IMG/VR virus record: IMGVR_UViG_2547132278_000021
Coordinates: 1 to 24,897 of that record
DNA: 24,897 bases
Source: a virus
Taxonomy: Duplodnaviria; Heunggongvirae; Uroviricota; Caudoviricetes
Direction: 5' to 3' (one strand)
Below are positions 1 through 17,573 of the stretch, one piece after another (the stretch's first letter is position 1; the number at the start of each line of letters is the position of its first letter). Under the pieces are notes generated by a model. The model was not told where the DNA came from. It did not search any database and saw only the letters and a program-made list of their open reading frames with translations. Both the position numbers and the translations under genes were made by a program.

Positions 1-447
<447 letters not shown>

Positions 448-448
<1 letters not shown>

Positions 449-2919
449 CAGAATCCCCCAACAGTAAGGCGAGGAATAACGGCAAGAACAGACAGCGGCA
501 ACGGGTCAAGCTGACGGATTCTTACACGTCCGTTTTTGCCCCAGTTACTGTCCAGTTTCACTTCTACTTTTCCGGTAGCGTCATCAACAGGATCATCGTA
601 GAACTCGAATTCACGCTGTGGATATTCGTACCATTTACCGCCGGGCGTAGTCGCCCAGATGCCGCGGCTGGCATTCACAACCAGAGTAACGGACGGGATC
701 ACCTGTTTTTTGTCCAGCAGCGTTTCCTGTCCGTTAATGTTGATATCCAGTGTTTCGAATTCAGCAGTTATTGGCAGGCCGATGTGCACTACAGCCCCCG
801 GTGATTCCAGCGTAACGGCACCTCCGGAAACTACTTTCTGTGGTTCCACGTTCGCATCAGAGAGGATGTTTACGGTCTGTCCTTCAAGATGAGACAGGCC
901 TCCAAATGTCCGGCGCGCCATCTGCCAGTTCGTGGTGGCCACATTCCTGAGGAATGGCGGGACGTTCCTGTTAGCACGAACCACTACAGCGGTATTGCTG
1001 GTTACAGAAATAATGTCGCAACGTAATTCTTTTGACACTTCATCTCCAGTATCAGGAACAGTTCCGGTATAAGGGAACTGTAGTTGCGCGCCGACATCAC
1101 TACTGGTGAAGTACGCACCACCAGAAACACTGATTGTATATTCCGCACGGTAATCCCATTCACCAGAACCACCAGTGATGGTCATCGTTCTGTCAGACGT
1201 ATTTCTTCCATCATAGCTAAGGCCAGAATCAACAAAGAAAGCATCTTCATCGCTGGTAAATAAACGGCTGGACAGTCTCTCGATGTATCTCACTGTTTGC
1301 CCGTTAACGGTTCTGTTAACGACGAAATACACCGCATCTTCATTGCCTTCGCTGATACTGCATGTGCTTTCATATTTTCCGGTACTGGATTGTGGTGCCC
1401 ATGCAAAAACCTGCTGATCACGCAAATAGGTCATCACCAGTAATTTACCGTCATCACGAATGCAGAAGGCGCTGGAGTAAGGGACAATCGAGAAGCACCA
1501 GTCAACAATGCTGTGCTTCTGAAAAAGATGATTGGCAAGGATAGTCAGGTCGTTCCCCTGATAGCCGTCAACATCGAATGAATAGGCCAGATCACGGACA
1601 ACACTGCCTTTCTCCTGGACGAACAGAGCAATATTCGCCACAGCAATTGGTGGGACGTTGCTCGAGCCATTTGATCCCTGAGAGCTGAATGCAAATGATG
1701 ATGGGGTTAACACTTTGTTCTGGTCGCCGGTGATGACGTACTCACCTCCGGAAGTCAGTGCCACCAGCGAACCGACATCAATCAGGTGGCGGATCTCATT
1801 AACCTGACGCCCGGCATAGGTGTAGATAATTCTGTCGTCATCCTGCGTAGGATTGCTTTTGCCAAAATCCTTATAATCCCCGGTACGGCTGGCCCAGATA
1901 GTCTGAGGGAACGCAGTCGATGCGGCGAAGTAAAGACGTTGTTGATAATAAACAACAGTGCCAGGATAACCATTAACACTGTTCCAGGCATATTTAGCCC
2001 ATTTATAGCTGGCATTATCCTCGCCAACTACCTGCGAAGGGATATAGGAAATCACCTCGGCAGTTGCAGTAGTTCCATTTGCAGCAGTGATACGGGCAAT
2101 GCCAAAACCACTGTGCAGATATTCCCACTCAATGCCAGTATCATCATCACCGGATCCGCCCCAGCCATCCCATGATGTGCCTTCTGTATGCGAAGGGCGC
2201 AAAGTGCCTGTTTTGCCTGCTGTAACGGCGCGATAGTAGTTACTGTCTGCACGGCGAATATCGCCAATCGACGTACTCTTACTGGTTTCCCATACCTGCA
2301 CTGAATCCACTGCAGGCTGTTCCAGATAGAACAATTTGCCTACCTGCTCCGCGCCAAAAATAGAGGCGCTTGCCGTTAACGTAATTGTCCCGGTGCTGGC
2401 GCTGGCATAAACCGTCACTGACTCGTCAATATTGATATCTTCAAATGGCCCGTTCTTCGTTACCACATCAACCAGTTGCCAGTTGTCATGCGCATAGCGA
2501 CGCAACTCTTTCGGCGGGTATGCCGGATGAACCAGCGTAAGCACGTCTGCGCTTTGCGTGAATTTAATTCGGAACAGATCGGCTTCAGTATATGGAGTGG
2601 CAATTTCATAAATAACATTGCTGCTGTTCAGCACCAACGCACCATCTTTGATAACGCGCATGTACTGGTGTCCGAACTCCAGAGCATAGGTCTGAACCGT
2701 CGAGAACTGGAACGGGATCAGGCGGCATTTCCGATTTGGGTATTTGGCGGCACCGACAAAACGCGTACCAGGTCGATTCTCAACGCCGCCATACTGCCGC
2801 ACGATAAAGTTATCGCACTTGCGCAATGCCACCTGGTACTTCGCCATGTCGATACGTCCGTACAACGACGGTCCAATCTCACCACCAGCAAAGCTGGGCT
2901 GGATCCAACTGATAGCCAT
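448..2919 (-). CDS. Large virion/tail structural protein (823 aa); by position and size resembles a podovirus tail tube/nozzle protein, the type often annotated 'phage stabilisation protein'
   Basis: Long ORF with ATG at 2919-2917 overlapping the upstream stop (TGATG). Last large gene of the head-tail operon, after a ~200-aa protein, mirroring the T7 gp11/gp12 order. Family assignment is by architecture, not alignment. Confidence 0.6.
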
Positions 2920-3524
2920 CAGGACAACCTCGCAATGGTAAACTCATCAACCGGTGGCTGAGGTTCCTGTGATTCATTCTGGCTATGCGAGCCAGCACTA
3001 AGAATCACGCGATTGTACATATTGAGGGCAAACGTACCGAGGTCTGCATTCCCAGTCAGCGCCATGTTAATGGCTGCCGCAAGACGCCAGGCCAGCGCCT
3101 CCATAAAAATGGCATCAAACATGTTTACATCTGAAACTCGAGAGACATACTTGAGCCATGCCTGCGGCTGGTCTGTGTAGATCAACTTTCCTGTTCCGTT
3201 GGTGTCTGCACCCACTTCGTACTGGACGCGCATTGCTGCTGTTGGATTGCGTACACCAGGAAGCATAATTTCAGTAATGCGCAGACAATCGGACGGATAC
3301 TGGTACGCATATTCCCAGTCAGGCGGTGGATTGTTCGTATCTGCAAGCACCACGCGTTTGGTAGCAAAGTTCCAGTCAAAATCAGAAAGCACAGCATCAC
3401 GGCAGGCCTCAAAGTGCAGTGAACATTCCCCCGCTTCCTTGCTGGCTTCCTTCAGGCTGTTAATGCTGCGGCTATTGCCAATATTGGACAGCGCACGATT
3501 GCAGATCTCTACTACAGAGGCCAT
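2919..3524 (-). CDS. Virion protein (201 aa), candidate tail adaptor/tubular protein A-like by position
   Basis: ORF coupled to both neighbours by overlapping start and stop codons; size and position match the gene preceding the large tail protein in podoviruses. Confidence 0.5.
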   Translation of the reverse strand: MASVVEICNRALSNIGNSRSINSLKEASKEAGECSLHFEACRDAVLSDFDWNFATKRVVLADTNNPPPDWEYAYQYPSDCLRITEIMLPGVRNPTAAMRVQYEVGADTNGTGKLIYTDQPQAWLKYVSRVSDVNMFDAIFMEALAWRLAAAINMALTGNADLGTFALNMYNRVILSAGSHSQNESQEPQPPVDEFTIARLS

Positions 3525-3847
3525 TACTCACCACCATTGCCGTACAGCGTTTCAGCCGCTGATTTTTCTACATCCCCGGAAACAGGAGCGATCGCCATAT
3601 CAGTGATCTGCAGATCGGCGCTGCGATTAACACCATCGTCAGTTTCTCTGGCAGACAGGCCTCGAATAACAGCCTTTGCAGTTATCATCACTTCTGTTCC
3701 GACGCCCTGAGGTTGCGCCTTCAGCTTATTCAATGTGTCGTTATTAAGAGTGATGCACAGCCCCCACGGGTATTCATCGCGAGTTCTGGTTTCTCCGCTC
3801 TCATCCTGGTAGCTGTCAGTGCCGGTTTTGAGGTTTACGAGTTCCAT
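3524..3847 (-). CDS. Hypothetical small virion/head-completion protein (107 aa from ATG 3847)
   Basis: ORF in the structural operon; ATG at 3847 preceded by AGGAG with 5-nt spacing. Track start 3853 is a GTG two codons upstream. Confidence 0.5.
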   Translation of the reverse strand: MELVNLKTGTDSYQDESGETRTRDEYPWGLCITLNNDTLNKLKAQPQGVGTEVMITAKAVIRGLSARETDDGVNRSADLQITDMAIAPVSGDVEKSAAETLYGNGGE

Positions 3848-3897
3848 ATACACTCCTGCAATAAAGGGGCCGAAGCCCCTTGTCTGATTCGCGAGGC

Positions 3898-4233
3898 TTA
3901 CACGCCCAGTTCTTTACGCTTATCTGCGATCTTCTCGCGGAGCGTTTCGGCTTTGGCGTTATGGTGTGGCTTCTCGTTAAAGAGCAATTCGTACTCTTCA
4001 CGGAGCTTATCCAGTTCACCATCATCTGACACATCATTGATGATTTTGGTGCTGGTTGCTGCCATAGACACCTTTCCTGCTACCTTTGCTTTTGCCTGTC
4101 TGGCTGCATCGTTAACAGGTTCCAGTGCGCTACCAGGCTCACCTTCGTATTCGATTTCTGCCCCCTCCGGCCACAGAGTGTTATGGATATGAGAGAGGCG
4201 CAGAACGCGGTATCTTGGTTTCTCACCTGACAT
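3898..4233 (-). CDS. Hypothetical small virion protein (111 aa from ATG 4233)
   Basis: ATG at 4233 preceded by AAGGTGA with 5-nt spacing; track start 4242 is a GTG. Lies between capsid and tail genes. Confidence 0.5.
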   Translation of the reverse strand: MSGEKPRYRVLRLSHIHNTLWPEGAEIEYEGEPGSALEPVNDAARQAKAKVAGKVSMAATSTKIINDVSDDGELDKLREEYELLFNEKPHHNAKAETLREKIADKRKELGV

Positions 4234-4243
4234 CAATATCACC

Positions 4244-4681
4244 TTAACCGGTTACTTTTGAGCGGATCGGATACGGCGTATTGGCATCAACATCAAGACT
4301 GATACCCGCAGTGAATTCGCCAGCCGTTAGTGGGCCAGTTGCGACGGAGTAGTTAACACGCAGATATCGCTGAACACCGGCAGGAACCTTTGCAGAAACA
4401 ACTCGTTTACCTGCTGTCAGGGCGGTCTTTGCCAGTGCACCACTATCATAAATAGTGGTCCATGAGCTGTTATTCTCACTCGTCTGCAACTGGATGTTTA
4501 CAGTTGCCTCACCACTTGCCGTGGCGGCTTCGTTAACCAGCGCCCAAAACTCAAGCGGGTAACCCACGCCGATATCACGACGTTTTCCGTCAATTGGACC
4601 GAGATCGATTACGTCAGTAGAAGCCGCGGTATTCGTAACCGCCTGAGCTTCGGAGAACATCAACAGTTTGTCGGTGATCAT
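4244..4681 (-). CDS. Hypothetical virion protein (145 aa), possible capsid decoration/accessory protein
   Basis: ORF immediately downstream of the major capsid gene; Gly/Thr/Ala/Val-rich composition. Function inferred from position only. Confidence 0.45.
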   Translation of the reverse strand: MITDKLLMFSEAQAVTNTAASTDVIDLGPIDGKRRDIGVGYPLEFWALVNEAATASGEATVNIQLQTSENNSSWTTIYDSGALAKTALTAGKRVVSAKVPAGVQRYLRVNYSVATGPLTAGEFTAGISLDVDANTPYPIRSKVTG

Positions 4682-4732
4682 CTTCTTTCTCCATTAGTGG
4701 GTCTGTTACGACCCACAGGTTAATAACAGGCG

Positions 4733-5725
4733 TTACACCACGCGGGCTTCTGTTTCCAGAAGCGCATCAGTTTCACGGATTGGTACACCACGGAATGAAG
4801 TCCACCACTCGCCTTCTGTCTCTTTTACGCTGATCGCCAGAGATGTTTTCTCCAGAGATTGCAGATCAAGAGCCTGTCCTACAGTGCGGTTCATGTAGAA
4901 CACTGGGCGCCCCATGCCACGGTTTGGAATGCGATGCAGTGCTTTAACCATCAACTTCGCAATATTTGCGGCAGAGGAAGGTTCTGAAAGATTGCTGACA
5001 TCGATGTTTGCAATGCGAACGACATAACGCCAGTCACGCAGAGCAAGTCCGTTATCCCATTTGTAATGGGTACGGTAGCCTTCGTACTTGCCGCCATTAG
5101 CATCTTCCAGTGTCACCTGGCCTTTATCTTCCATCTGAATGCCAGCCTTCTGCCCTTTCGGGAAGATGCCATGCACGGTGTTTTCGCCCCACACCACTAA
5201 CCAGATTGAGGTGTTATCTGTACCCGTGCCACCAGCATCAATGATGTTCTGAGCATTACCCGCAGACAGGCTGGAATAGCGGGATGACAGTCCCATAAAC
5301 TGCTGAGGGTTAACGCTGGAATCACCATAAAACAGCGTCTGCGCCATCTGCTGATTCATCGCTTCAATAAATGCGCGGTCTTCAGACAGGCGGAATTCGG
5401 CGGTATTGCCGTTCAGATCAGCCAGTGACTTATCGACTTCAGCATAGGTTTCCAGCATGCCAACGGAATCGGTTACCTGCACTGTGGTTGATTTGCTTGG
5501 CTGTACTCCATAGTTCAGCAAACGCCAGGTAGCTGAAGGTAAACCAGAACGAATGGTGGTTCGGTGTCCGGTAGGAAGGTTCCCTTCGACAAAAGGCATA
5601 TCCTGAAGGATCGGGTTAGTTTGACCGAGAAGCTCGATAATCTTATCGACTTTCCCGTTTGGATCGACGCGCTTACCCCAGTCAGCCAGCGTTAGCGCAG
5701 TTAAGCCTTTAACAGCCATTGTCAT
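4733..5725 (-). CDS. Major capsid protein (330 aa; start may be the second ATG at 5719)
   Basis: ~36-kDa ORF directly after an acidic scaffold-like gene, in the canonical portal-scaffold-capsid order. GAGAGG Shine-Dalgarno upstream is better spaced for ATG 5719. Confidence 0.7.
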   Translation of the reverse strand: MTMAVKGLTALTLADWGKRVDPNGKVDKIIELLGQTNPILQDMPFVEGNLPTGHRTTIRSGLPSATWRLLNYGVQPSKSTTVQVTDSVGMLETYAEVDKSLADLNGNTAEFRLSEDRAFIEAMNQQMAQTLFYGDSSVNPQQFMGLSSRYSSLSAGNAQNIIDAGGTGTDNTSIWLVVWGENTVHGIFPKGQKAGIQMEDKGQVTLEDANGGKYEGYRTHYKWDNGLALRDWRYVVRIANIDVSNLSEPSSAANIAKLMVKALHRIPNRGMGRPVFYMNRTVGQALDLQSLEKTSLAISVKETEGEWWTSFRGVPIRETDALLETEARVV

Positions 5726-5733
5726 TTCCTCTC

Positions 5734-6429
5734 TTATTTGCCATAGAGCACTTCGGCCGCACTACGCTGGCCTTCATTAACACCGGTGACCATGCCATCT
5801 TCAGACATCGCCTTTCCGATTTTCACGAACGTTTTGACCAGATCAGGGTGATTACCCAGCCCGGTGGTGTTCAGATATTCTTTGAGTTCAGGTGTCCCGA
5901 ACTGGTCAAGCGCACGCTGTGCGGCGCTAAGGTTAGAAATCAACTTGTCGCCACCGATTTCTTTGTCAGCTTTTACATCCGCAGCCCACTGCTCGGTTGT
6001 TTTCTGCCAGGCTTCTGCCTGGCGCTGCTGAACACCTGCCAGAATCTTCGGATAAGCATCAACCAGCTTTTGCGCTTGCTCGTTGGTCAGGTTAAGTTCT
6101 CGCGCCACCGGCTCGAATTCCTTCAACGCTTCTGTATCCAGCTCTACGCCTTCGGCAGCCTGAAACTCGTACTTCTCAGGCGCACCCTCTGGTTTATCGC
6201 CGTCCTTTTTTTCATCCTGCTTATCGTTTTCAGGCTTTTTGTCATCAGCAGGTTTATCGCCATCAGCAACAGGTTGTGGCTTATCACCTTCCTGTTGTGA
6301 TGAATCACCAACTGGAGCAGGGTTATCACCTGCAGGCGCTGACGGTTCTGACGCAGCCGGAGCTGCTCCACCATCGACTGGTTGCTCATTGCAAAGACGG
6401 CGATACAGCAAACGCTCAAATAAATTCAT
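5734..6429 (-). CDS. Scaffolding protein (231 aa from ATG 6429)
   Basis: Highly acidic, low-complexity, D/E/K/P-rich N-terminal half with a helical C-terminus, sitting between portal and capsid. Track start 6435 is a GTG overlapping the upstream TGA; ATG 6429 follows AGGAG. Confidence 0.65.
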   Translation of the reverse strand: MNLFERLLYRRLCNEQPVDGGAAPAASEPSAPAGDNPAPVGDSSQQEGDKPQPVADGDKPADDKKPENDKQDEKKDGDKPEGAPEKYEFQAAEGVELDTEALKEFEPVARELNLTNEQAQKLVDAYPKILAGVQQRQAEAWQKTTEQWAADVKADKEIGGDKLISNLSAAQRALDQFGTPELKEYLNTTGLGNHPDLVKTFVKIGKAMSEDGMVTGVNEGQRSAAEVLYGK

Positions 6430-6431
6430 GC

Positions 6432-6728
6432 TCACTCCTGTTCACTGGCCTCTTTGGCCATCTTCAAATACTGTTCAGGGCAATGCGCCATAACGCGCTG
6501 AAACAGTTCCAGCGCCAGATTGCGTTGCCCCTCATTAAATGCCATTGCCATAGCATCCATCGGAGAGATAGCGGAAAACACCCGGCCTTTCTCCAGCACA
6601 GACCAGACAACGCGACGCCCCTGTTCACTGCTCATGACAAAGCGAATGTCATCAATTTCACGCTGTGCCATGTCACGTTGCTTACGGGCGTTTTCTTCTT
6701 TCAGTTGATCGTCCTCGTAATCTGTCAT
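6432..6728 (-). CDS. Hypothetical 98-aa protein between portal and scaffold
   Basis: ATG 6728-6726 overlaps the portal stop (ATGA coupling); charged helical protein. Confidence 0.55.
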   Translation of the reverse strand: MTDYEDDQLKEENARKQRDMAQREIDDIRFVMSSEQGRRVVWSVLEKGRVFSAISPMDAMAMAFNEGQRNLALELFQRVMAHCPEQYLKMAKEASEQE

Positions 6729-8404
6729 TGTGATTGCCCACCCTGACCACTAACTGCATTCGCCATAGCTGACAAAACACTCGGATCCGAAGTTTTAGCT
6801 TCGCTTAGCGTCTTGGCACCCTGTGCCGCCGCCATTCCCATCGCCATCATTTGTTGCTGCTGTTGCTGCTGTGCCCGTTGCTGGCGAGCCTGCTCAACCT
6901 GTTCCTGCGGAACAATGACGGTTGGAGACACTCCGGACATATCAGCGAATGCATCGATCGCCTGATCAACATTGAGTTTGTCGAGAGCTTCTGGTTTCGC
7001 TTGCGCAAGTTGACCAATGAAGTTGACCGTAGACGCCAGACTGGACAGGCCGATAGACTTCTGCGCCTGAGCCATGACGGAAATGTATTCGACCTTCAGG
7101 GGCATACCTTCCATCGCGTCAGGCGGTGGCGGCAGCATGTTTTTACGCACCATCATCGAGAAAGCGCGGTCAATGAGAGGATTAAGACATTCGTCGTTCA
7201 GACGCTCCAGAACCGGCCCCAACATCAGAAGTTTTTCTTCTTTCATTTCGATCACCGCTTCAACAGGCATCGAGCGGGTATTGATGTTCTGCAACATCAT
7301 GAACAGATCGACAAAGTAGGCGCTGTTAATGATTTGACGGGTGTCCTGAATGTCTGCCACCAAATCTGCTGTACTGGGGTTAACCAGATAAGCAGGCCTG
7401 AAACCATCCTGACCAGTAATCTGATCGATATACGTGATGTCGCCAGGAAGAAGGGAGGCACGCTGATTCTTGAGGGAAGTCGGAGCAACCATCGGCGGAT
7501 TGGTGGCTTTATCAATCAACTGCGACTTGCGCTTCTGGAGAAGCTGCAATGCCTTAACAGGTCCAAGCGCCAGCATACCCGGGCATGATGATCCATAAAC
7601 ATCTTCGCCGTTAACTTCCCAGCGCGGAGCCATAATTGGAAACTCATCGAATCCGGACTCGCGCAACAACTTGTCGTTATCGCCACCAACCTCGTAATAA
7701 ACCGATTTGAATGGCTTGTTCTTGCTATCCAGCTTCGATGTATCGCGGTCAATGTTCGGGTAAACCGAATGCATCACTTCAATCCACTTCTCGTAGGTGC
7801 CGCTTTCCCACATGCTTTTTACGGATTCGCTGACGTTATTTAGCCCGAACTCCTGAACAAGCTGACGAACAGTCATAGAGAACTTGCGAAAACAGGTGTC
7901 CACACTGCCACGAGGTGAGTTAGCCAGGTAGTAACTGCCTATCGGGAATGGCATTGTGCGAATGATGTCCTCGTCATCCTCCAGCACTGCCATTGCACCA
8001 GTGCTGTATGTGCCGAGGCTTCCGTATAACTGCGGCAGCGACTGATAGAGATTCGACTTATTGAACATATCGTTCATGCGGTTCTGCACCGCCTCAAGCC
8101 ACAACTTAACAGGGCCATAATCCATCATTTCAGGATCTGGCGTAGCCAGGCGAAACCACGGACGCGCGGGGCTTGTGATGCCTGACATCATGCCGCTGGC
8201 GAGAGTGCGCGCCGCCATAGTCCCGGTCGAATCAATAATGCGTGTATTGCGTCGATCGTTACGGTTGACCTCAGAAGTCAGAAAGCGGGAACCACGTGGG
8301 TTGATGTAATCACTCAACTCGCGCCAGTGCGGCTCGAACGACTGACGCTCGCTTTCAAGTTGTGCGAACTGTTTGTTCAATCGCTCTTTAGTTGTTTCCG
8401 CCAT
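6725..8404 (-). CDS. Portal (head-to-tail connector) protein, podovirus type (559 aa)
   Basis: Size, position after terminase, and a Gln-rich C-terminal tail (QQRAQQQQQQQMMAMGMAAAQGA...) reminiscent of T7-type connectors. Start context CCGGAGTCATTGAA-ATG. Confidence 0.75.
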   Translation of the reverse strand: MAETTKERLNKQFAQLESERQSFEPHWRELSDYINPRGSRFLTSEVNRNDRRNTRIIDSTGTMAARTLASGMMSGITSPARPWFRLATPDPEMMDYGPVKLWLEAVQNRMNDMFNKSNLYQSLPQLYGSLGTYSTGAMAVLEDDEDIIRTMPFPIGSYYLANSPRGSVDTCFRKFSMTVRQLVQEFGLNNVSESVKSMWESGTYEKWIEVMHSVYPNIDRDTSKLDSKNKPFKSVYYEVGGDNDKLLRESGFDEFPIMAPRWEVNGEDVYGSSCPGMLALGPVKALQLLQKRKSQLIDKATNPPMVAPTSLKNQRASLLPGDITYIDQITGQDGFRPAYLVNPSTADLVADIQDTRQIINSAYFVDLFMMLQNINTRSMPVEAVIEMKEEKLLMLGPVLERLNDECLNPLIDRAFSMMVRKNMLPPPPDAMEGMPLKVEYISVMAQAQKSIGLSSLASTVNFIGQLAQAKPEALDKLNVDQAIDAFADMSGVSPTVIVPQEQVEQARQQRAQQQQQQQMMAMGMAAAQGAKTLSEAKTSDPSVLSAMANAVSGQGGQSQ

Positions 8405-8418
8405 TTCAATGACTCCGG

Positions 8419-8625
8419 TTACTGACCAAGCAGCGTTTTACCGCTGGTATTAGCGGTTGATGTGTCGCCCTGAGAACCGGTAAGCAGCGTAGAACTACGA
8501 CCAGCAGCAGCGCGACGGCGACGAGTTTCTTCGTCGCGGGCATCAACAACGGCGGCATCCTGCTCCTGTGGTGCTGCCTGAACTTCTGGTGTTGCAGGCA
8601 CTGATGGTGAGCTACCCATGCACAT
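8419..8625 (-). CDS. Hypothetical 68-aa low-complexity protein upstream of portal
   Basis: ATG at 8625 is preceded by the same initiation block (GGAGTCATTGA-N-ATG) as the portal gene; Ser/Thr/Ala/Gln-rich. The overlapping 79-aa track ORF 8406..8645 starts on TTG and is less likely. Confidence 0.4.
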   Translation of the reverse strand: MCMGSSPSVPATPEVQAAPQEQDAAVVDARDEETRRRRAAAGRSSTLLTGSQGDTSTANTSGKTLLGQ

Positions 8626-8653
8626 ATCAATGACTCCGTACGCAATTAAATTA

Positions 8654-8730
8654 TTACCAATTTAACCACATATGATTTATTTATCGTAGATAGTTGACAT
8701 TTAACGCACAAATTATTACCTTTCAGGTAA
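8654..8730. promoter_or_regulatory. Operator-like site TTACC-TTTCA-GGTAA (8716-8730) with consensus -35 TTGACA (8694-8699) and a degenerate upstream half-site (8654-8668) at the cassette spacing
   Basis: Perfect 15-bp dyad identical in form to the immunity-region operators. Flank AAATTATTACC matches the flank of the pL-like proximal operator. Transcription direction not resolved. Confidence 0.45.
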
Positions 8731-9052
8731 GCAAAGAGTTCATTCCGGTTATTAACCTGACTGGCTTGTCGTTAAATTGAACAGGTGGAGTGAGCTTTTA
8801 TTTTGAGCAGTACGGCGTATGGCACATGCGCCGATAGCGGTCTGGATACGTTTAAGGGGCACCCTCCCTTGCTCGGGCAAACGAACCAGGTAGCCGGAAT
8901 GTGCAAGTCGAGCGGTTTTATTCCGCGCACGGGGATTCACCATCCCGGCGATTTGGTGTGACGCCTCGGAAGAGACGAGGGTACAACGATGAGAGCATTT
9001 ATGGAGCCGCGACAAAGTGTGGCGCCTTAACAGGCTAAGTGCTCTCAGCGTT

Positions 9053-9129
9053 GTGGCATTAGCTCAGTTGGACAGAGCAACCGCCTTCTAAGCGGTTGGT
9101 CGCAGGTTCGAATCCTGCATGCCACGCCA
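9053..9129 (+). tRNA. tRNA-Arg (anticodon TCT, decodes AGA)
   Basis: 77-nt cloverleaf folded by hand: acceptor GTGGCAT/ATGCCAC, D stem GCTC/GAGC, anticodon stem ACCGC/GCGGT with loop CTTCTAA (U33, TCT, A37), T arm GCAGG-TTCGAAT-CCTGC, discriminator G, encoded CCA. Confidence 0.9.
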
Positions 9130-9172
9130 GAATCACGCCTAAGGACCGTGATGCCAGAAGTTCCAGGTGCTT

Positions 9173-9214
9173 GGCGGTGATGGTTTCCCTTGAAGGACTA
9201 TCACCGCCCTTTTT
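9173..9214 (+). terminator. Intrinsic terminator downstream of the tRNA
   Basis: 9-bp stem GGCGGTGAT / ATCACCGCC followed by CTTTTT. Confidence 0.5.
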
Positions 9215-9292
9215 ACAGCAGGACGCCATTGCGATGACTTCATGCTGTAAACCCGTACAGCCACGGAAGGCATAACTCATTGCTTCCAGTTC

Positions 9293-9316
9293 GCCCGGTT
9301 CGCCGGGCATTTTTTT
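9293..9316 (+). terminator. Intrinsic terminator-like hairpin immediately upstream of the Gp49-like gene
   Basis: GCCCGG-TTCG-CCGGGC stem-loop followed by A + TTTTTTT. Confidence 0.5.
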
Positions 9317-9327
9317 AAGGTGAGATT

Positions 9328-9653
9328 ATGAACGACCAGCAAATCGAAAAAGAAATCGTTGAGAAAGGCAAAACCGCTCCGCGAGTTACGCCTCAATATA
9401 TCGAAAGCATCATTCTTGAAGAGCATTTCTTTACTGCTTAGACGGCATTCGTGCTGCCAATATGGGCGTTGGCGATTCATGGACAGCGCATAAATCTACA
9501 GACCTCCTGACTTTCTGCGTATTGGTACTGAAGAATGGCTTCACCGTCACCGGAGAGAGTGCCTGTGCAAGTCCGGAAAATTTTGATGCAGAAATTGGTC
9601 GGAAGATTGCCCGGCAGAATGCTGTAAACAAAATCTGGATGCTTGAAGGTTAA
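9328..9653 (+). pseudogene. Gp49-like small phage protein gene (Phage_gp49_66-type) disrupted by a frameshift
   Basis: ATG 9328 with AGGTGAG Shine-Dalgarno encodes MNDQQIEKEIVEKGKTAPRVTPQYIESIILEEHFFTA then TAG at 9439-9441. The adjacent frame continues from 9441 (DGIRAANMGVGDSW...LKNGFTVTGESACASPENFDAEIGRKIARQNAVNKIWMLEG) to TAA 9651-9653; the two frames join with a 2-nt offset. Confidence 0.5.
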
Positions 9654-9686
9654 TTGCTGAAGCAGAAGTTAAGCGAGCAATAACAC

Positions 9687-9700
9687 CGTGACATGTCACA
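9687..9700. repeat. 14-bp element CGTGACATGTCACA (perfect 12-bp palindrome GTGACATGTCAC), copy 1, downstream of terL
   Basis: Identical 14-mer recurs at 11952-11965. Confidence 0.8.
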
Positions 9701-9703
9701 AAC

Positions 9704-9730
9704 AGCCAGCCGATGAGCTGGCTTTGTTTT
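9704..9730 (+). terminator. Intrinsic terminator (possibly bidirectional) between the Gp49-like gene and the terL 3' end
   Basis: Stem AGCCAGC / GCTGGCT with loop CGATGA, followed by TTGTTTT; A-rich on the other side. Confidence 0.55.
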
Positions 9731-9773
9731 ATCCTCACCAGAGGATATCTCCGTCATTATCCCCGCTAACGGA

Positions 9774-11249
9774 TTAAGCATAGGGATCGTAATCTGTAAT
9801 GGCCTTGCCTTGCTGGTTCTGCTGCCCGGGAATTCGCAGGCGCTTTGACACCGGGAAAGCAAACGTCAGCAGTAGCGCATCGCCTTTACCAGGCGAACGC
9901 CCAAGTCGTTCTTTGATATCTTCCTTCGGTTCGATAACGATTTTACCGTCCACGCGAACTTTGTACTCTGCCGCCGACAGGTCGTCTGCAGTTTCCTGGT
10001 CATCCAGCATGCCGCCTAGCCTCAGCCATGTCTTGCATGAGTTGAACATCTCCCCACGCTTGTTGAGCATCTGCGGGTCAGTAGACGCGCCACCGAACGG
10101 AACAAGTTGCCATGTACGACCCCAGCCGTCACCGATTGACTTCAAACCGGTTCCGTAACCGAAGTCGATGAACACCGCGTCAGCCTGATACTGGTCTTCA
10201 AAGTCAGCGATACGCTTCGCCATAATCAGATCGTCGGTAGTCTTGTTGCCAGTCCACAGCACCTTACTGTGCAGCCCCTGCCGCAGGTATATCACAGCGT
10301 CATCAACGCCTGAGTATGCCGGGTCAACGCCGATTATCACCGGAGCATGTGCAACCTGCGCAGCGGTTACCACCCGTTTCATTGCCTCATCAGTAAGACC
10401 GGTAGGGATAAACTGCAATTCAGATGCATCAGGGAATATGCCGCGCACACGGACCTTCACGAAGTCGCTGTCCTCGCCATGGTCTTCAATCCATTTTTGA
10501 ATCTGCTCTTTGTTCGTTCCTTCGACGGTACGGCTGTCGATCTGCTTCGTAACCCAGCGGTGTTTATATTTGCGGAAGCATTCCCTGAAACGCCCGGAGT
10601 TACGCGTAGGGTTTCCGAACGCTACCCAGATGATTTCCGTGTCTTCGTCCGTCAGCGCACCCTCGGCCACCTCCCAAACTTTATCAGCAATGTTTGACGC
10701 CTCATCGAATACCACGATGATCCGCTTACGCTCGTTGTGCAGGCCGGCGAACGCCTCGGTGTTGTGCTCAGACCACGGGATTGCGTCAGCGCGCCAGCGT
10801 TTATCGTGGCCCGGATCATTGCTGTACATGGCTGTTGCTGGGGTAGAGAACCAGTCTTTCGTGATGGACAGGTTTGCCCACTTAATCACTTCAGGCCATG
10901 TCTTGGTACGCAGCTGATTTTCGGTGTTGGCAGTGACTACTGCTTTGCAGTCTTCGCAGGTTGACATACCCCAGTTCAGGAGCATGGAAATACCCGCACT
11001 TTTCCCTATGCCGTGGCCTGAAGAAACGGCAATCATCAGCGGCTGATGACGGGTTTCTGGGTTCCTGAGGTGCTCACCAACCGTATCGAGCATCCATCTT
11101 TGCCAGTTTCTTGGTCCGGATGCATGCGCCAGCTCTGTACCCTCTTCCCCCCACGGGAACGCATAGAGGGCATAGCCAAGCGGATCGTGAGTGAACCCTG
11201 CTATATCCTCGATCAACTGCTCTTCAGGAGATAACGATGTATCTGTCAC
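9774..11249 (-). CDS. terL: Terminase large subunit (491 aa)
   Basis: N-terminus SPEEQLIEDIAGFTHDPLGYALYAFPWGE..., a Walker-A-like GHGIGKSAG and an acidic VVFDEASNI stretch, then a nuclease-sized C-terminal domain. GTG start at 11249 overlaps the terS stop (GTGA). Confidence 0.85.
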   Translation of the reverse strand: MTDTSLSPEEQLIEDIAGFTHDPLGYALYAFPWGEEGTELAHASGPRNWQRWMLDTVGEHLRNPETRHQPLMIAVSSGHGIGKSAGISMLLNWGMSTCEDCKAVVTANTENQLRTKTWPEVIKWANLSITKDWFSTPATAMYSNDPGHDKRWRADAIPWSEHNTEAFAGLHNERKRIIVVFDEASNIADKVWEVAEGALTDEDTEIIWVAFGNPTRNSGRFRECFRKYKHRWVTKQIDSRTVEGTNKEQIQKWIEDHGEDSDFVKVRVRGIFPDASELQFIPTGLTDEAMKRVVTAAQVAHAPVIIGVDPAYSGVDDAVIYLRQGLHSKVLWTGNKTTDDLIMAKRIADFEDQYQADAVFIDFGYGTGLKSIGDGWGRTWQLVPFGGASTDPQMLNKRGEMFNSCKTWLRLGGMLDDQETADDLSAAEYKVRVDGKIVIEPKEDIKERLGRSPGKGDALLLTFAFPVSKRLRIPGQQNQQGKAITDYDPYA

Positions 11250-11839
11250 TGATTACCATCCTGACGTTCTTTGAGTCGCTTCCTGGCTGCTGCTATGCGA
11301 TCAGCAATTGTCACATTCACATTAACATCCAGACGTTCTTTGAACGCGTTGACATCAACATGCTTACCAATCAGCTCAAGGTTCTTCACCTTGTCAGGCC
11401 ATTTAATTTTTTTGAGGATTGTCTCTATCGAATCCTCGTTCATGTTCATGATGGTCGATGACAGATCAAAGCCACTAAGCGTAGTGCGCCAGATTTTCGG
11501 CCACTCACGGATTGGTTTAAGGCTCCCATCGTCGTTGAGGATGTCGATCACGTCCATCTGGTCGATCTCCACCAGGCGCATGAGAACGTAATCAGCACTG
11601 ACGCGCATTCGTTTGTTGCGCTCCTCCATCAACTCGGCAATCCGTTTTTGAATGCGTTCATCGCGCATCATGACACTGGCTTTAACTGCCGCTGTATTTG
11701 GAGAGAATCCTGCGTTAATCGCTGCCTGAGTCTGGTTTTCAGGCGTTTTGATGTATGACTGGCAATAAGCCTCCTGCATTGCTGTTAGTGGCTTAAATTG
11801 CGTTGATTTGCGTTTATAGGTTTTAGGTTCAGCAGGCAT
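11246..11839 (-). CDS. terS: Terminase small subunit (Terminase_2-like), ~197 aa from the internal ATG
   Basis: Region LTAMQEAYCQSYIKTPENQTQAAINAGFSPNTAAVKASVMMRDERIQKRI has the Terminase_2 HTH pattern. Track start 11920 would place a terminator hairpin inside the coding sequence; ATG 11839 is preceded by GGTGG. Confidence 0.75.
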   Translation of the reverse strand: MPAEPKTYKRKSTQFKPLTAMQEAYCQSYIKTPENQTQAAINAGFSPNTAAVKASVMMRDERIQKRIAELMEERNKRMRVSADYVLMRLVEIDQMDVIDILNDDGSLKPIREWPKIWRTTLSGFDLSSTIMNMNEDSIETILKKIKWPDKVKNLELIGKHVDVNAFKERLDVNVNVTIADRIAAARKRLKERQDGNQ

Positions 11840-11884
11840 CATAACCACCGTGGTAATAGTTACCGTTGTGGTAATAGTACCATG

Positions 11885-11911
11885 CAAAATAAAGCCGCCA
11901 TAGTTGGCGGC
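11885..11911 (-). terminator. Intrinsic terminator hairpin upstream of terS
   Basis: Minus-strand GCCGCCA-ACTA-TGGCGGC followed by TTTATTTTG. Confidence 0.5.
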
Positions 11912-11951
11912 AGTATTCAAAACCCATCAAATTCATCATGCATAATCTACT

Positions 11952-11965
11952 CGTGACATGTCACA
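11952..11965. repeat. 14-bp element CGTGACATGTCACA, copy 2, overlapping the stop of the Cys-rich gene
   Basis: Identical to 9687-9700. Confidence 0.8.
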
Positions 11966-12299
11966 CTATTAATTTCGTTTCATGCCAGCCTTTAGTCACC
12001 CAGCATTGCGAGTCACCATTACACGGGCATGAATTAACTGGAACTCTCTCGCCGCACTTACCGCAACATTTTCTGCTGATCGATTTTATACGCCCGCGCA
12101 CGCGTGCATCATCCTGGCGGATCAGTAACGCTATATACTCACCAAATTCGTAAGGCGCACGCCCGGGGCGACGCGTGGCACAGTTACGCTCCAGCATTTC
12201 AATTTCCTGAGCATCAAGCACAATTTCCAGCTTACGCACACCAGATGCAGCTTGTCTGGCTCTCTGAGCGGCTTTGCGCTCTGCTGCTGATTTAGCCAT
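11961..12299 (-). CDS. Hypothetical Cys-rich protein (112 aa) with basic Arg/Ala-rich N-terminus
   Basis: ATG at 12299. N-terminus [24 protein letters not shown]-terminus [22 protein letters not shown] suggests metal binding. Sits immediately upstream of the palindrome, terminator and terminase genes. Confidence 0.5.
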
Positions 12300-12633
12300 T
12301 CTGATTTTCCTGCATCATGAGAAATACAATCATGGCGGCGCGGAGAGGTCTGGTATCAAATATTGGTCTTACGCCTTTTGCATCAACACACCATTCAGTT
12401 AACTGGTCTAAGATAGAAATCCTGTGTTTCTCAATAATCGGCCATGAGGCGCTAGGATCATTGCAGTAGTCAGGTAAATGGTTTAATGGCTCAAAAGTTG
12501 TATCAGTATTTCCGTAATACCATTTGTTGGTGTTATTCCCTGATGTTTCCGGTTTACATGCCCAAAGGCCTTTAAAAATTATGTCTCCTACCATTCTGTT
12601 AATTTCAAAATCACTTAACTGTGAATAGTCCAT
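12292..12633 (-). CDS. NinX-like (DUF2591-type) phage protein, 113 aa
   Basis: ATG 12633 overlaps the upstream TGA (ATGA) and follows AGGAGGTG. Family assignment from memory of the [13 protein letters not shown]-terminus; tentative. Confidence 0.5.
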
Positions 12634-13547
12634 CACTTCACCTCCTGCGGCGGTTCTGGTAGAGGCATCCAGTGGGTTACACCGCCAATTGGCTCATCGT
12701 CGTCGTACTCCAATGCGGCTATATAGAACCCGTCACGACGAGAATAAGAAATCCCGGACATTACAATGCCATCCGAAACAACAATAATGTCACCCGTTTC
12801 TTTCGGCATTCGCTCACTACAGCTTATCCAGGCATCCAGAGTTACCGGAACTTGTGGAATGGCTGTCTGCTCTCGAACGTCATTAGGCGCTATAGGTTCT
12901 GCTGCCAACTGACTGGCATATTTGTTAATGGTAACGATAAGCTCTTGCTCAGCCTCATCCAGACAATCACCGATACCTCGCCTGTCACCGTCAAAATCAT
13001 CGAAATCGGCACGAATCCTGGCAACCTTCAGGATTGCGGACAACACCTCACTAGGAATTGCCGGATAGTTGGTTGACGTTTCCGCGATTTCCCGAAAATT
13101 ATTGGTTGACGAATTCTTATTTTCCCGAAAGTTTCCGGACTGAAGCATGGCGGCGCGGCAGGCGTTCCAGCCAGCTGTTCGCCCAAGCGCGTAAACTTCA
13201 GATGGCTCAAGATAATCAATGTCATGCCCGTCCTCATCGTCGTTCTCAGGTAATGCAGCAGGTACTACCGGTACTGGCGGAGCGGCGTAGACTTCAATAA
13301 TCCCATTATCAATAGGCCATTCTCCATCCTTGAGATAGTCACTTGTGCCGTCAACTTGCTGTTCAGCAATGTGGAATGCACCAACTGGCTCTGCTGCCAG
13401 CGATGCCAATGCGATTTCCAAAACAGCAATATCCATTTTATATGTGCGGATGATGTCATGGTCGATTGTGCCTGGTATGCACAGTCTCTGTGCTTCAATA
13501 GTCTCCTCTGCGTGAGTTATTAACTGCTCTCTGGTAAAAGTGGTCAT
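12633..13547 (-). CDS. Hypothetical phage protein (304 aa) with C-terminal DUF551-like motif
   Basis: Ends ...[17 protein letters not shown], characteristic of DUF551 C-termini. Strong AAGGAG Shine-Dalgarno 6 nt before ATG 13547. Confidence 0.6.
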
Positions 13548-13557
13548 GTGTTACTCC

Positions 13558-13821
13558 TTAACCCGCAGTGCTTTCAACTGATGAGGGGAACAAAATCTTT
13601 TCATCAAACCCTGCATTCATATCATGAACAGCAACACACCAATCCACCGACGAACGATTATCAAGAGCCTCCATGATTTCATCCATGCGGCGTAGGTCAT
13701 ACAGGTAAATGTTTTTATCGCCAATGGTGTAAAAGCCAATTTTTTTCGGTGATGGACAGCGATCAATGACGTCCTGTAATTCGTTCAACCATGCCTGTTC
13801 TTTTTTTGTCAAAGTTGCCAT
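13558..13821 (-). CDS. Hypothetical protein (87 aa from internal ATG 13821)
   Basis: ATG 13821 preceded by AAGGAAAA; track start 13911 would overlap the upstream gene. Confidence 0.45.
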   Translation of the reverse strand: MATLTKKEQAWLNELQDVIDRCPSPKKIGFYTIGDKNIYLYDLRRMDEIMEALDNRSSVDWCVAVHDMNAGFDEKILFPSSVESTAG

Positions 13822-13822
13822 A

Positions 13823-14041
13823 TCAGTTTTCCTTATACGGATTAATTTTATTGTGCAGTGTGTTGAACGGGGCCCATACAACGTCGTTATACAATTCAAT
13901 AACGGGCTCAATTACTTTTCCGATTATCCAGGCCAGTAATAGCGGGGATATCGGTATCATCAACACGATAAACAGAATGAGAAACAAAAATTCTGTCGCT
14001 CTACTTTTTCGCGGATATTCTTTTCTGAATAATGTAGTCAT
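13823..14041 (-). CDS. Small membrane protein (72 aa, one predicted transmembrane helix)
   Basis: Basic N-terminus then hydrophobic FLFLILFIVLMIPISPLLLAWIIG. Locally AT-rich by eye, and preceded by a 143-bp AT-rich gap containing palindromes. Confidence 0.5.
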   Translation of the reverse strand: MTTLFRKEYPRKSRATEFLFLILFIVLMIPISPLLLAWIIGKVIEPVIELYNDVVWAPFNTLHNKINPYKEN

Positions 14042-14125
14042 TTCTTACCGCCCTTTCGGACGGTCTCCTGATGTTCTGAGGGTGCAGGAATCCCTCCGGT
14101 TAAGGATTAAATTTTATTTACAGAA

Positions 14126-14152
14126 CTGAATTTAATTATTCAGATATACGTA
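14126..14152. promoter_or_regulatory. Palindrome-rich AT-rich intergenic region upstream of the small membrane protein gene
   Basis: CTGAAT-TTAATT-ATTCAG inverted repeat (14126-14143) and ATACGTAT (14145-14152). Confidence 0.3.
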
Positions 14153-14184
14153 TCTGTAACCTTACGAACCTACTCACTGGATGC

Positions 14185-14658
14185 CTATTTCATAAAAATA
14201 ATCCAGTGGGTTTTATCGTTTTTTCCTGTTCGTTGACCGATAACAGGCTTTCTGTCGGTCAGTGCCAATATTTGGCGAACAGGTATTTGCGTTTCATTCC
14301 ATTTAAAAATCAGAACGCCGTATGGCCACAACACACGAAAGGCTTCTTTAAATCCCTGCCGCAAATCATCACGCCAGGTATCTTTATTCATCCGTCCATA
14401 TTTCTTTCTCATCCAGGCGTTATCACCAACACGTTCAAGATGCGGAGGGTCGAATACAACAACCGGAAACGATGCGTCTGCAAATGGTAATGCACGAAAA
14501 TCTGCTATCAGGTCAGGGCTAATTATCAGCCGTCGTCCATCACATAATGTGTGCTCTTCCTTTCTGATATCGCTAAATATCGCCCGGTCGTCATTCTTAT
14601 CGAACCAGAACATGCGACTGCCACAGCACATGTCGAGGATTGTTGCATGTCCAGTCAC
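14185..14658 (-). CDS. Small phage Dam-like N6-adenine DNA methyltransferase (157 aa)
   Basis: SAM-binding motif I-like ILDMCCGS near the N-terminus and catalytic DPPH (DPPY-type) motif in VVVFDPPHL. GTG start at 14658 overlaps the upstream TGA. Confidence 0.6.
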   Translation of the reverse strand: MTGHATILDMCCGSRMFWFDKNDDRAIFSDIRKEEHTLCDGRRLIISPDLIADFRALPFADASFPVVVFDPPHLERVGDNAWMRKKYGRMNKDTWRDDLRQGFKEAFRVLWPYGVLIFKWNETQIPVRQILALTDRKPVIGQRTGKNDKTHWIIFMK

Positions 14659-15188
14659 TGGTTGCCTCCTTTGCGAAGCTGGGAGGCTAACTCATCACAT
14701 ATGTGCGTCAAAGAGCAAAGTTTGATTGATGGATGTTCGCGCATCATCTCCACCCCCTGTGCCCGTACTTCAGCCAGGAAAGCGTCGGTAGCTGGAATGG
14801 GCTTTTGTGGTGATATGGCTATGAGAATTGTCTCAAGGTCTGGATCCGTTTCCGCTGTTGGTACCCTGATATAACCCATCTGCACCCCATTCATGATGAA
14901 CCTGCGACGGTCATCACATATCGCCTTTAGCCCCGCATTCTCCGCAGCCAGCACCGAAAACTTCTCGTGTGCCAACTTAACAGCCGCATCAGCCTGCTTA
15001 ATTGACTCAATCGCTTTCTGCTGGTCTTCGGCCAGCGCATTAGCACGCACCAGTTGCACTTCCAGTTGCGTTGCCAAATCGCTGATCAGCTTTGCCACAC
15101 TGCGCATATCAACGGCACCACATTCTGCTTTCAGTTCCGAAGCCATCTCATGCCCGGCGGAAACTAACCCTTTGATATTACTTTCCAT
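14655..15188 (-). CDS. Hypothetical protein (177 aa), coiled-coil N-terminal half
   Basis: ATG 15188 preceded by GAGGG; no recognisable catalytic motif. Confidence 0.5.
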   Translation of the reverse strand: MESNIKGLVSAGHEMASELKAECGAVDMRSVAKLISDLATQLEVQLVRANALAEDQQKAIESIKQADAAVKLAHEKFSVLAAENAGLKAICDDRRRFIMNGVQMGYIRVPTAETDPDLETILIAISPQKPIPATDAFLAEVRAQGVEMMREHPSIKLCSLTHICDELASQLRKGGNQ

Positions 15189-15249
15189 CTTTACCCTCGC
15201 TTATCCACATAACTTATTGATTACATTGATAACTAAAAAGATCGTCGAT

Positions 15250-15594
15250 TCAGAACTCTTCGATGTTCCAGCCACCACCTGCTTTCTTTGGTTTAACCGT
15301 TACCCCGATGATTCGGAACGGATACTGATCTGCGGCGACTTTGGTTTTCACCCTGGCGTCGTCGGTCCAGAAACCTTTCACTTCGTGTAGTTCCATCTCG
15401 CCGGTGGCGAGCATCACAGCAAAATCGGGCGTATAGAACGTGTTGTCAGCTAACCGCAGCTTGATACCCTCGAATCGATACCAGGCGATTTCCCCTGCAC
15501 GTTTACGCTGCTCAAGGTGCTGGCAATACGCAGATTCTGTTTTGTTCATCTGGCCTGTTTGGAGTCGACCAAGAGCCTGTATCTGTTTTCTCAT
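15250..15594 (-). CDS. DUF1064-like phage protein, possible PD-(D/E)XK-fold nuclease (114 aa)
   Basis: Motif YTPDF...EMELHEVKG is compatible with a D...E.K nuclease core. First gene after the internal promoter-operator cassette. Confidence 0.5.
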   Translation of the reverse strand: MRKQIQALGRLQTGQMNKTESAYCQHLEQRKRAGEIAWYRFEGIKLRLADNTFYTPDFAVMLATGEMELHEVKGFWTDDARVKTKVAADQYPFRIIGVTVKPKKAGGGWNIEEF

Positions 15595-15597
15595 GAT

Positions 15598-15674
15598 TTA
15601 CCTCTAAGGTAATTAAAAACCACATAAGACACGAAATCAATAGATCTAAGAATATTTTGTTACCTATCAGGTAA
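15598..15674 (-). promoter_or_regulatory. Internal promoter-operator cassette: operators TTACC-TCTAA-GGTAA (15598-15612) and GTTACC-TATCA-GGTAAC (15659-15675) flanking -10 TTTAAT (15612-15617) and -35 TTGATT (15635-15640)
   Basis: Two perfect dyads 62 bp apart centre to centre, the same spacing and layout as the pL-like cassette; 17-bp spacer between the hexamers. Confidence 0.6.
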
Positions 15675-15686
15675 CTATTGAGGCGT

Positions 15687-15706
15687 AAAAAAATGCGCTA
15701 TCGCGC
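15687..15706 (-). terminator. Weak terminator-like element after the P-like gene
   Basis: Minus-strand GCGC-GATA-GCGC hairpin followed by TTTTTTT; only a 4-bp stem. Confidence 0.3.
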
Positions 15707-15711
15707 TGGTA

Positions 15712-17357: not shown

Positions 17358-17372
17358 GATTAATCTCCGCTA

Positions 17373-17573
17373 TCAGCTTGAATGTTGTGGGGAGGAATTA
17401 ATCATGATCTGCTTAATCTCTGCCCTGATGCGACGGTTTGATTCCATGGTGCACTCAACACAGTGTCCGTTGTAAACCCAGCGTTCACTGTCATGTCCGT
17501 GCTTACATGGTTTTCCGGTGTAGTAGCGTTTAAGTCCGCGCTTTGCGGCATCAATACGTGTAATGATTTCCAT
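17373..17573 (-). CDS. Hypothetical zinc-finger-like protein (66 aa from ATG 17573)
   Basis: C-x-H-G-H ... C-V-E-C arrangement (KPCKHGHDSERWVYNGHCVEC). Track start 17636 is a TTG with no Shine-Dalgarno. Confidence 0.4.
   Translation of the reverse strand: MEIITRIDAAKRGLKRYYTGKPCKHGHDSERWVYNGHCVECTMESNRRIRAEIKQIMINSSPQHSS

Follow-up and report, generated by a model that had tools for sequence, protein, structure and literature searches.

Which phage lineage does a podovirus-like morphogenesis module belong to when it stands next to early genes of lambdoid appearance? This question is raised by a 24,897-bp stretch of viral DNA (IMG/VR record IMGVR_UViG_2547132278_000021, positions 1 to 24,897; hereafter the window), in which late genes for packaging, head and tail occupy 448-11920. 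The original prediction, made from the sequence alone, described a podovirus-style morphogenesis module joined to a lambda-like immunity and replication backbone and proposed a temperate podovirus of enterobacteria, whose lineage it could not assign by eye. Our analysis leaves little doubt that the window holds the greater part of a phiV10-like prophage of an Escherichia-type host (genus Uetakevirus, with epsilon15 as its type phage), intact from the small terminase subunit gene (TerS) to the tail nozzle gene and cut at its far end by an insertion sequence (IS). This phage type is already known, common and well characterised in E. coli, and its relatives have been sequenced, imaged and studied experimentally; the discovery value of the window is accordingly small.

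Genes of the window are densely packed on the minus strand between 448 and ~17,950 and continue on the plus strand to ~23,640, with a minus-strand integrase gene at the right edge; the regulatory and replication genes lie at 12,000-24,897, that is, outside 448-11920. Megablast against phage records gave 96.8% DNA identity to phiv142-3 at 87% coverage (~84% over the visible 24.9 kb), with values close to these for PAS61, ZX5, TL-2011b and HEMP4. The whole late module (307-11960) is 96.8% identical in DNA to phiV10, one of the candidate relatives that had been named. At least 80% of the window is present in 267 complete E. coli genomes. All the predicted late open reading frames (ORFs) were found where they had been placed, at the sizes given and on the minus strand; their family matches, and the 92-100% identity of the full-length proteins to their phiV10 and phiv142-3 counterparts, show that they are real genes. 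Gene order is colinear gene for gene with phiV10, the prophage of E. coli strain JML285, epsilon15 and phiv142-3 (TerS, the large terminase subunit TerL, portal, head, adaptor, nozzle and internal proteins), and phiv142-3, PAS61, ZX5, TL-2011b and phiV10, at 96-97% DNA identity, share an identical order from nozzle to integrase. From the late-protein identities and the DNA matches together, the lineage that could not be assigned by eye is that of the phiV10-like Uetakevirus phages, and the proposal of a temperate enterobacterial podovirus is thereby borne out, with epsilon15 and phiV10 among the candidates that had been named.

The matching phage records are classified as Uetakevirus. The genus guideline of the International Committee on Taxonomy of Viruses is ~70% or more nucleotide identity over the genome, and on the visible part of this genome the identity lies above that value. 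The signature head proteins of the genus (GP7-family capsid, Gp10 staple and Bbp16-type cement) are all present, as are its Rep-type repressor and dispersed ATTACC-N5-GGTAAT operators. The type phage itself, Salmonella phage epsilon15, resembles the window in module order and in the sequences of the nozzle (88% identity), adaptor (85%), portal (80-81%), TerL (88%) and integrase (87%), and shares the operator core; unlike the window, it has no lambda P homolog, carries other recombination genes and has a capsid-shell cassette only 32-43% identical. Two caveats attach to the assignment: the window covers 24.9 kb only, with the tailspike, lysis genes, anti-repressor and attachment (att) sites lying beyond its ends, and the segment 11,950-15,250 is covered at most 33% by any single phage record. 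We found no evidence that contradicts the lineage itself.

The tyrosine integrase gene (23647-24897, minus strand; PF13356, PF00589, PF22022) is nearly complete, the window stopping ~2 codons before its start. The orthologous prophage in JML285 adjoins guaA, and the att core attgagtgggaatgatt, used for Uetakevirus integration at the guaA 3' end, was not found in the window. A further 64 matches of the window, to records named 'Synechococcus phage', were rejected as phage relatives, since they consist of the tRNA-Arg gene alone (~67 nt, 90% identity).

The podovirus reading of the module rests on its gene order and on its tail and portal proteins. The tail nozzle, an 823-amino-acid (aa) homolog of epsilon15 gp12 and phiV10p15 (448-2919, minus strand), matched PDB chain 8ck1_A ('Tail Nozzle') over its full length at E = 1.2e-217, and also LME-1 orf18 (1.4e-15) and the tail protein family PHROG 376; it is 99% identical to the phiV10 protein and 88% to that of epsilon15. 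The tail adaptor (connector), a 201-aa homolog of epsilon15 gp11 (2919-3524, minus strand), matched chain 8ck1_E ('Connector Protein', 2e-25). Neither tail protein belongs to a Pfam family. By tblastn of the chain sequence we traced the chains of 8ck0 and 8ck1 to Cobetia phage Carin1 (100% identity), and the Carin-1 virion is referred to as that of a podovirus solved with cryo-electron microscopy (cryo-EM; d'Acapito et al. 2023, cited in PMC13317679). Among solved structures, those of Carin-1 (PDB 8CK0/8CK1) and LME-1 (9EFK) are thus the closest for portal, connector and nozzle; these are marine or Legionella phages, and their connectors are only 32-35% identical to the adaptor of the window.

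An AlphaFold2 (AF2) model of the adaptor (predicted local distance difference test score, pLDDT, 87; predicted template modelling score, pTM, 0.78) was compared with the PDB by Foldseek. All 24 matches at E<0.001 were podovirus adaptors, among them those of Carin-1 (template modelling score, TM, 0.83), LME-1, PhiM1, P-SCSP1u, KP32 (gpA), Kp7/Kp9, HRP29, KHP30 and SU10, while neck proteins of siphoviruses, myoviruses and gene transfer agents appeared at E>0.03 only. Best matches to siphovirus or myovirus components, named beforehand as the outcome that would overturn the podovirus reading, were therefore not what we observed. T7 gp11 (7BOX) matched at E = 5e-6 with TM 0.58-0.60, and the model predicts that the adaptor has the T7 gp11 fold. 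The tail consists of a T7-style adaptor (201 aa) and a hexameric nozzle (823 aa), followed by internal (ejection) proteins.

The portal (559 aa; 6725-8404, minus strand) is of the T7 gp8 type (PF12236 Head-tail_con, 1.6e-187; PDB 8ck0_A portal, 5.7e-179). With it, the module repeats the order and sizes of T7 gp8 (portal), gp9 (scaffold), gp10 (capsid), gp11 (adaptor), gp12 (nozzle) and gp13 (gp13-16 being internal proteins of T7); the order and size pattern on which the original prediction was based is supported by this likeness, by curated families and by the Carin-1 tail matches. T7 shares with the window the portal Pfam family and the adaptor fold. Blastp and phmmer of T7 gp8-gp13 against the window proteins gave nothing better than E = 0.03, which places the phage outside Autographiviridae; in addition, T7 is virulent whereas the phage of the window is temperate, and the window's capsid protein is of the GP7/BPP-1 topology family and is accompanied by cement and staple proteins. 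P22 chains were absent from the PDB sequence matches of the portal, adaptor, nozzle and 233-aa proteins and from the adaptor fold matches (E<0.001), so that in these searches the window shows no P22 homologs. Of the four comparators that had been suggested, epsilon15 and phiV10 are thus matched outright and T7 in order, family and fold only, and P22 is not matched. We conclude that the module would function as a tail of the T7 type joined to a head of the epsilon15/BPP-1 type, and that it falls in neither the T7 nor the P22 family.

The major capsid protein (330 aa; 4733-5725, minus strand) belongs to the epsilon15 GP7 family (PF20911, 2.1e-149) and is 100% identical to that of phiv142-3 and 42-43% identical to epsilon15 gp7. 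Downstream of it lie a Bbp16-family capsid cement protein (145 aa; 4244-4681, minus strand; PF21190, 2.5e-48), a conserved 111-114-aa homolog of epsilon15 gp9 (3898-4242, minus strand; PHROG 590, 3.9e-61; 40% identical to gp9, no Pfam match) and a Gp10-like capsid staple (107-109 aa; 3524-3853, minus strand; PF21628, 1.2e-51), the last annotated as 'capsid staple protein' in JML285 by the Prokaryotic Genome Annotation Pipeline (PGAP). The head is accordingly read as an epsilon15/BPP-1-type shell of HK97 fold, in which Bbp16-type cement and a Gp10-type staple are added to the GP7 capsid protein. Its scaffold during assembly is most likely the 233-aa protein, acidic and helical, that is encoded between portal and capsid genes.

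That 231-233-aa protein (5734-6435, minus strand), a homolog of epsilon15 gp6, had been called an acidic scaffold, and it is labelled 'peptidase' or 'protease' in NCBI clusters, PGAP, PHROG 458 and the phiV10 and epsilon15 RefSeq records. If these database names are taken at face value, the protein is a prohead protease, and head assembly is either independent of a scaffold or served by another protein; in HK97-type phages a protease gene is often found between the portal and capsid genes, the position that this gene occupies. According to the epsilon15 RefSeq note, however, the label derives solely from likeness to a 'putative endoprotease' of Salmonella LT2. Profile and sequence searches gave no peptidase match, and no match to a solved protease, in Pfam, NCBIfam or PDB. 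The family is large (8,170 representatives at 50% identity, E<=1e-10, all of ~200-240 aa); among 62 diverse homologs none matched a peptidase family and no Ser, His or Cys was invariant, the only invariant residues being Y87, A119, D155, G159 and G160. In the AF2 model the acidic residues 1-80 are disordered and the remainder is all-helical, a predicted architecture unlike known prohead protease folds; with the pLDDT at 45.5, only this secondary structure was used and no fold search was made. The 330-aa capsid protein also appears too short to contain a delta domain, in which case a separate scaffold would be expected. Finally, the very end of the C-terminus varies in step with the allele of the capsid protein: overall identity to epsilon15 gp6 is 71%, yet the last ~20 residues of the protein are unrelated, and this divergence coincides with the switch of the neighbouring capsid gene to a 42%-identical allele. 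On this evidence we regard the protease reading as unlikely.

The protein instead shows scaffold-class traits in gene position (between portal and capsid genes, the place of T7 gp9), acidity (isoelectric point 4.57, net charge -16) and helicity, and two of the 62 homologs weakly matched the T7 capsid assembly family PF05396 (E = 0.0013). Against a scaffold stand an hhalign probability of 0.2% with T7 gp9, to which the protein is unrelated by profile comparison, and the low confidence of its model; the family profile against the PDB returned noise only (best E-value 0.15). As for the literature, the 2025 epsilon15 cryo-EM paper gives no gene-level assignment of gp6, gp11 or gp12, and the PhiXacm4-11 preprint does not mention scaffold or protease. 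Taking the test results together with the position between portal and capsid genes, we consider the 233-aa protein a likely scaffolding protein. The earlier call thus holds for acidity, position and helicity; as a role, scaffold is plausible and better supported than 'peptidase'.

The comparison with epsilon15 further delimits a capsid-shell cassette (window 3524-5790 versus epsilon15 5895-8040) that takes in the final ~20 codons of the putative scaffold gene together with the genes for capsid protein, Bbp16 cement, 114-aa protein and Gp10 staple, and is only 32-43% identical between the two phages. Its flanks (portal, adaptor and nozzle) are much closer to epsilon15, as given above, and its boundaries are sharp, the first 30 residues of the adaptor being 93% identical to epsilon15. 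With slightly less assurance than for the single protein, we favour the broader view that the whole 'peptidase/protease' family (>8,000 clusters at 50% identity) is the scaffold of epsilon15/BPP-1-type heads, its last ~20 residues being a coat-binding tail swapped with the cassette. Such an exchange would account for the low identity of the cassette (32-43%) next to flanks at 81-88% when phiV10-type and epsilon15-type phages are compared. As a separate observation, a Bbp16-type cement (the decoration protein of BPP-1) and a Gp10-type staple (the decoration protein of epsilon15) are encoded together here.

The packaging genes lie at the right end of the module. TerL (491 aa; 9774-11249, minus strand) matched the PHROG 2 terminase large subunit (8.5e-52) and is 92% identical to the phiV10 and 88% to the epsilon15 protein. 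TerS (11246-11920, minus strand; PF03592 Terminase_2, 1.4e-29) was called as a 224-aa ORF from a TTG codon. Two operators (11842-11856 and 11860-11874) and a terminator-like hairpin (11911-11894) fall inside the 5' extension of this ORF, so that the true start is probably near 11842/11839 (M27/M28), giving 197-198 aa. TerS is annotated at 197-198 aa in epsilon15 and phiv142-3, the epsilon15 protein having 198 aa with operators directly upstream, and the TTG start is used in the phiV10 annotation. TerS and TerL package DNA through a dodecameric portal of the T7 type. The head operon opens with a conserved 68-aa protein (8419-8625, minus strand; PHROG 831, 2.4e-36), 88% identical to its homolog epsilon15 gp3, and a 98-aa Bbp19-family protein (6432-6728, minus strand; PF25181, 2.8e-17) follows the portal. 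Consensus scans of 1-12400 did not outperform shuffled sequence, returning 6 promoters against 11.8 expected and 16 terminators against 11.3 expected, and these sites are usable as context only.

The early half of the window was described as a lambda-like backbone, and we examined how far the likeness extends. The replication genes include a 266-aa helicase loader of the lambda P family (15712-16512, minus strand; PF06992, 1.5e-56), which shows ~30% identity to lambda P across 77% of its length and has no epsilon15 homolog. The overlapping gene (16494-17357, minus strand) encodes a 287-aa replication initiator with an N-terminal HTH_36 domain (PF13730, 2e-10) and a C-terminal DnaT domain (PF17948, 1.3e-15); in the Pfam scan it had no match to the lambda O family (Phage_rep_O). 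In the linker between the two domains lies an array of iterons (16906-17060) with four perfect 24-bp units, three degenerate copies and a palindromic core CCCGTTTT(T/C)GGG (Tandem Repeats Finder: 24 bp x 4.6 copies, 100% match). The window has four perfect units where phiv142-3 and JML285 have two, and the extra iterons lengthen the initiator linker by 16 residues (two GMLNDPKN repeats). Judged from its sequence, the array is probably the replication origin. Iterons within the initiator gene, followed by an overlapping P-family gene, correspond to the ori-within-O logic of lambda; since the initiator lies outside the O family, it is an analogue and not a homolog.

Between the module and the replication genes, the accessory region (11,950-15,250) contains NinX-like, DUF551, 117-aa, 157-aa DNA methyltransferase and Ea22-like genes, and a DUF1064 gene is also among the accessory genes. 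This region is pieced together from segments of 100-550 bp with 91-97% identity to Shiga toxin (Stx)-converting, P22-like and HK phages, and in phiv142-3 and the other close relatives the same block is a different mosaic; the RecT allele of phiv142-3 is 73% identical to that of the window. These pieces, the lambda-P family protein, the NinX, Ea22-like and DUF551 genes, and the absence from epsilon15 of the P, PD-(D/E)XK and RecT alleles seen in the window are what would be expected if a podovirus late region had recently been joined to a true lambdoid early region derived from lambda, P22 or an Stx phage. Yet the same pairing of late and early regions is found in phiV10, phiv142-3, PAS61, ZX5, TL-2011b and the 267 E. 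coli genomes; the replication-module DNA is common to epsilon15/phiV10-type phages only (29 records; no lambda, no Stx phage); the P protein is just ~30% identical to that of lambda; and the repressor, operators and integrase are of the epsilon15 type. A recent new hybrid is therefore largely refuted and, in our judgement, highly improbable.

The switch region differs from that of lambda. The prophage repressor (194 aa; 18109-18693, plus strand) is homologous over its full length to Rep of Salmonella phage SPC32H (PDB 5d50_A Repressor, 3.5e-42; HTH_3), 99.5% identical to the phiv142-3 and 43% to the epsilon15 protein, and Pfam detected HTH domains only, with no S24 autocleavage domain. Divergent from its gene is that of a 76-aa cro-like small regulator (17724-17954, minus strand; PHROG 35, 5.6e-13; 76% identical to epsilon15 gp39). 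The palindrome TTACC-N5-GGTAA (<=1 mismatch) occurs 10 times in the window against 0.43 expected (positions 8716, 11842, 11860, 15598, 15660, 17654, 17991, 18039, 18751 and 18813). An OR-like operator cluster (17991-18053; sites 17991, 18022 and 18039) lies between the cro-like and repressor genes, and an OL-like pair (18751-18827) precedes the plus-strand recombination operon. Other sites head transcription units, namely the head/tail operon (8716), TerS (11842, 11860) and the accessory operon (15598, 15660), and one lies at 17654. The site upstream of the head/tail operon, TTACCTTTCAGGTAA (8716-8730), is placed equivalently to the epsilon15 'repressor' site 2931-2947. The operator core is that of the annotated epsilon15 'repressor' sites, found at equivalent positions although the two repressors are only 43% identical.

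Over-expression of the same repressor blocks the lytic cycle of the close relative ZX5, in which a Bro-type anti-repressor promotes it (PMC9782041), and SPC32H Rep is a tetramer that the anti-repressor Ant breaks apart (PMC9638917). By comparison with these systems, the Rep-family repressor, lacking an autocleavage domain, would bind the TTACC-N5-GGTAA operators at the head of every transcription unit, the late operons included, and in relatives an anti-repressor inactivates it; occupancy of the operators is predicted from their sequence and placement. Close relatives of the window encode and respond to an anti-repressor, which in phiv142-3 is Orf8, and the equivalent part of this genome lies beyond the window. 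Antiterminator families were matched by none of the 20 non-structural proteins scanned with Pfam, the N- and Q-family models not having been examined individually. We conclude that the switch and late-gene control are of the epsilon15/SPC32H type.

The early region is lambdoid in organisation, with an integrase, a RecT/nuclease operon, a divergent pair of repressor and cro-like genes, an iteron-bearing initiator, a P-type loader and nin/ea-type genes. As in lambda, operator clusters flank the repressor gene on both sides; unlike lambda, whose operators are restricted to OL and OR and whose late genes are under Q antitermination, the window has a Rep (5D50) repressor without S24, operators on its late operons and an initiator outside the O family. 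The predicted lambda-like backbone therefore survives in part: the P homolog, the iterons within the initiator gene, the divergent repressor/cro-like pair and the NinX, Ea22 and DUF551 genes speak for it, while the repressor type, the dispersed operators at late operons, the non-O initiator and the lack of an antiterminator-family match among the proteins scanned do not. From the shared and unshared features, the backbone is lambda-like in organisation and shares part of the lambdoid gene pool, but is not lambda-like in its switch. More generally, early genes that look lambdoid need not be under control of the lambda type: in this group the switch is of the Rep/anti-repressor kind, and the late operons have operators of their own.

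We also asked whether this copy of the prophage is still functional. Positions 1-306 (plus strand) are the right end of an IS100kyp element (IS21 family), containing the last 61 codons of istB (55-240) and the terminal inverted repeat. They match at 100% identity plasmid copies with the annotation 'IS21-like element IS100kyp family helper ATPase IstB', and the IstB C-terminus matched the NCBIfam IstB model at 1.3e-31. Phage homology begins at base 307, which places the junction at 306/307, and the first phage gene (307-448, minus strand) is a 5' remnant of an internal virion protein gene homologous to phiV10p16 and epsilon15 gp13, with ~47 of its 154 codons left; in tblastn with phiV10p16, residues 1-50 matched at 92% and the match then ended. 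The IS100/phage junction is absent from all 5,426 complete E. coli genomes. A second lesion lies in a Gp49-family gene (Sf6 gene 66-like; 9328-9680, plus strand), a pseudogene with a frameshift at ~9426-9438 and a stop codon (9651-9653) 17 codons early, its decay being judged by tblastn with the intact JML285 protein, whose match splits into two frames. The Gp49-like gene is absent from phiv142-3. The window accordingly differs from phiV10-type phages in its four iterons (two in phiv142-3), its decayed Gp49-like gene and its IS100 insertion.

Every gene from TerS to nozzle is full-length, as is the early region throughout, and the sequence left of the IS lies beyond the window; these facts would fit a prophage that is still complete and inducible, either because the IS is harmless or because the late region is intact beyond it and the truncated gene is dispensable. 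We consider this distinctly improbable. The gene that loses ~107 of its 154 codons to the IS encodes an internal virion protein conserved across phiV10, epsilon15 and phiv142-3. The IS also stands between the promoter-proximal late genes and the genes downstream for ejection proteins, tailspike and lysis, a separation that makes polarity likely; moreover, the Gp49-like gene is already a pseudogene. Given the truncation of a virion gene and the lack of any complete E. coli genome with the junction, this copy is probably defective. The IS100 insertion and the Gp49-like pseudogene suggest that it is decaying although its TerS-to-nozzle block is intact, and the window can be read as a record of prophage decay.

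Among the minor features, a 344-aa highly charged coiled-coil protein without an epsilon15 counterpart is encoded in the early recombination operon (19005-20039, plus strand; PHROG 1376). A tRNA-Arg gene with anticodon TCT (9053-9129, plus strand) was found by ARAGORN and is the same gene as in the PGAP annotation of JML285; its strand is the opposite of that of the late genes, and in phiv142-3 it is annotated on the other strand. Overlapping it is an 83-aa minus-strand ORF (9059-9310), annotated as phiV10p04, which is probably spurious; for annotation, its removal would accompany the change of 'peptidase' to probable scaffold and the probable shortening of TerS.

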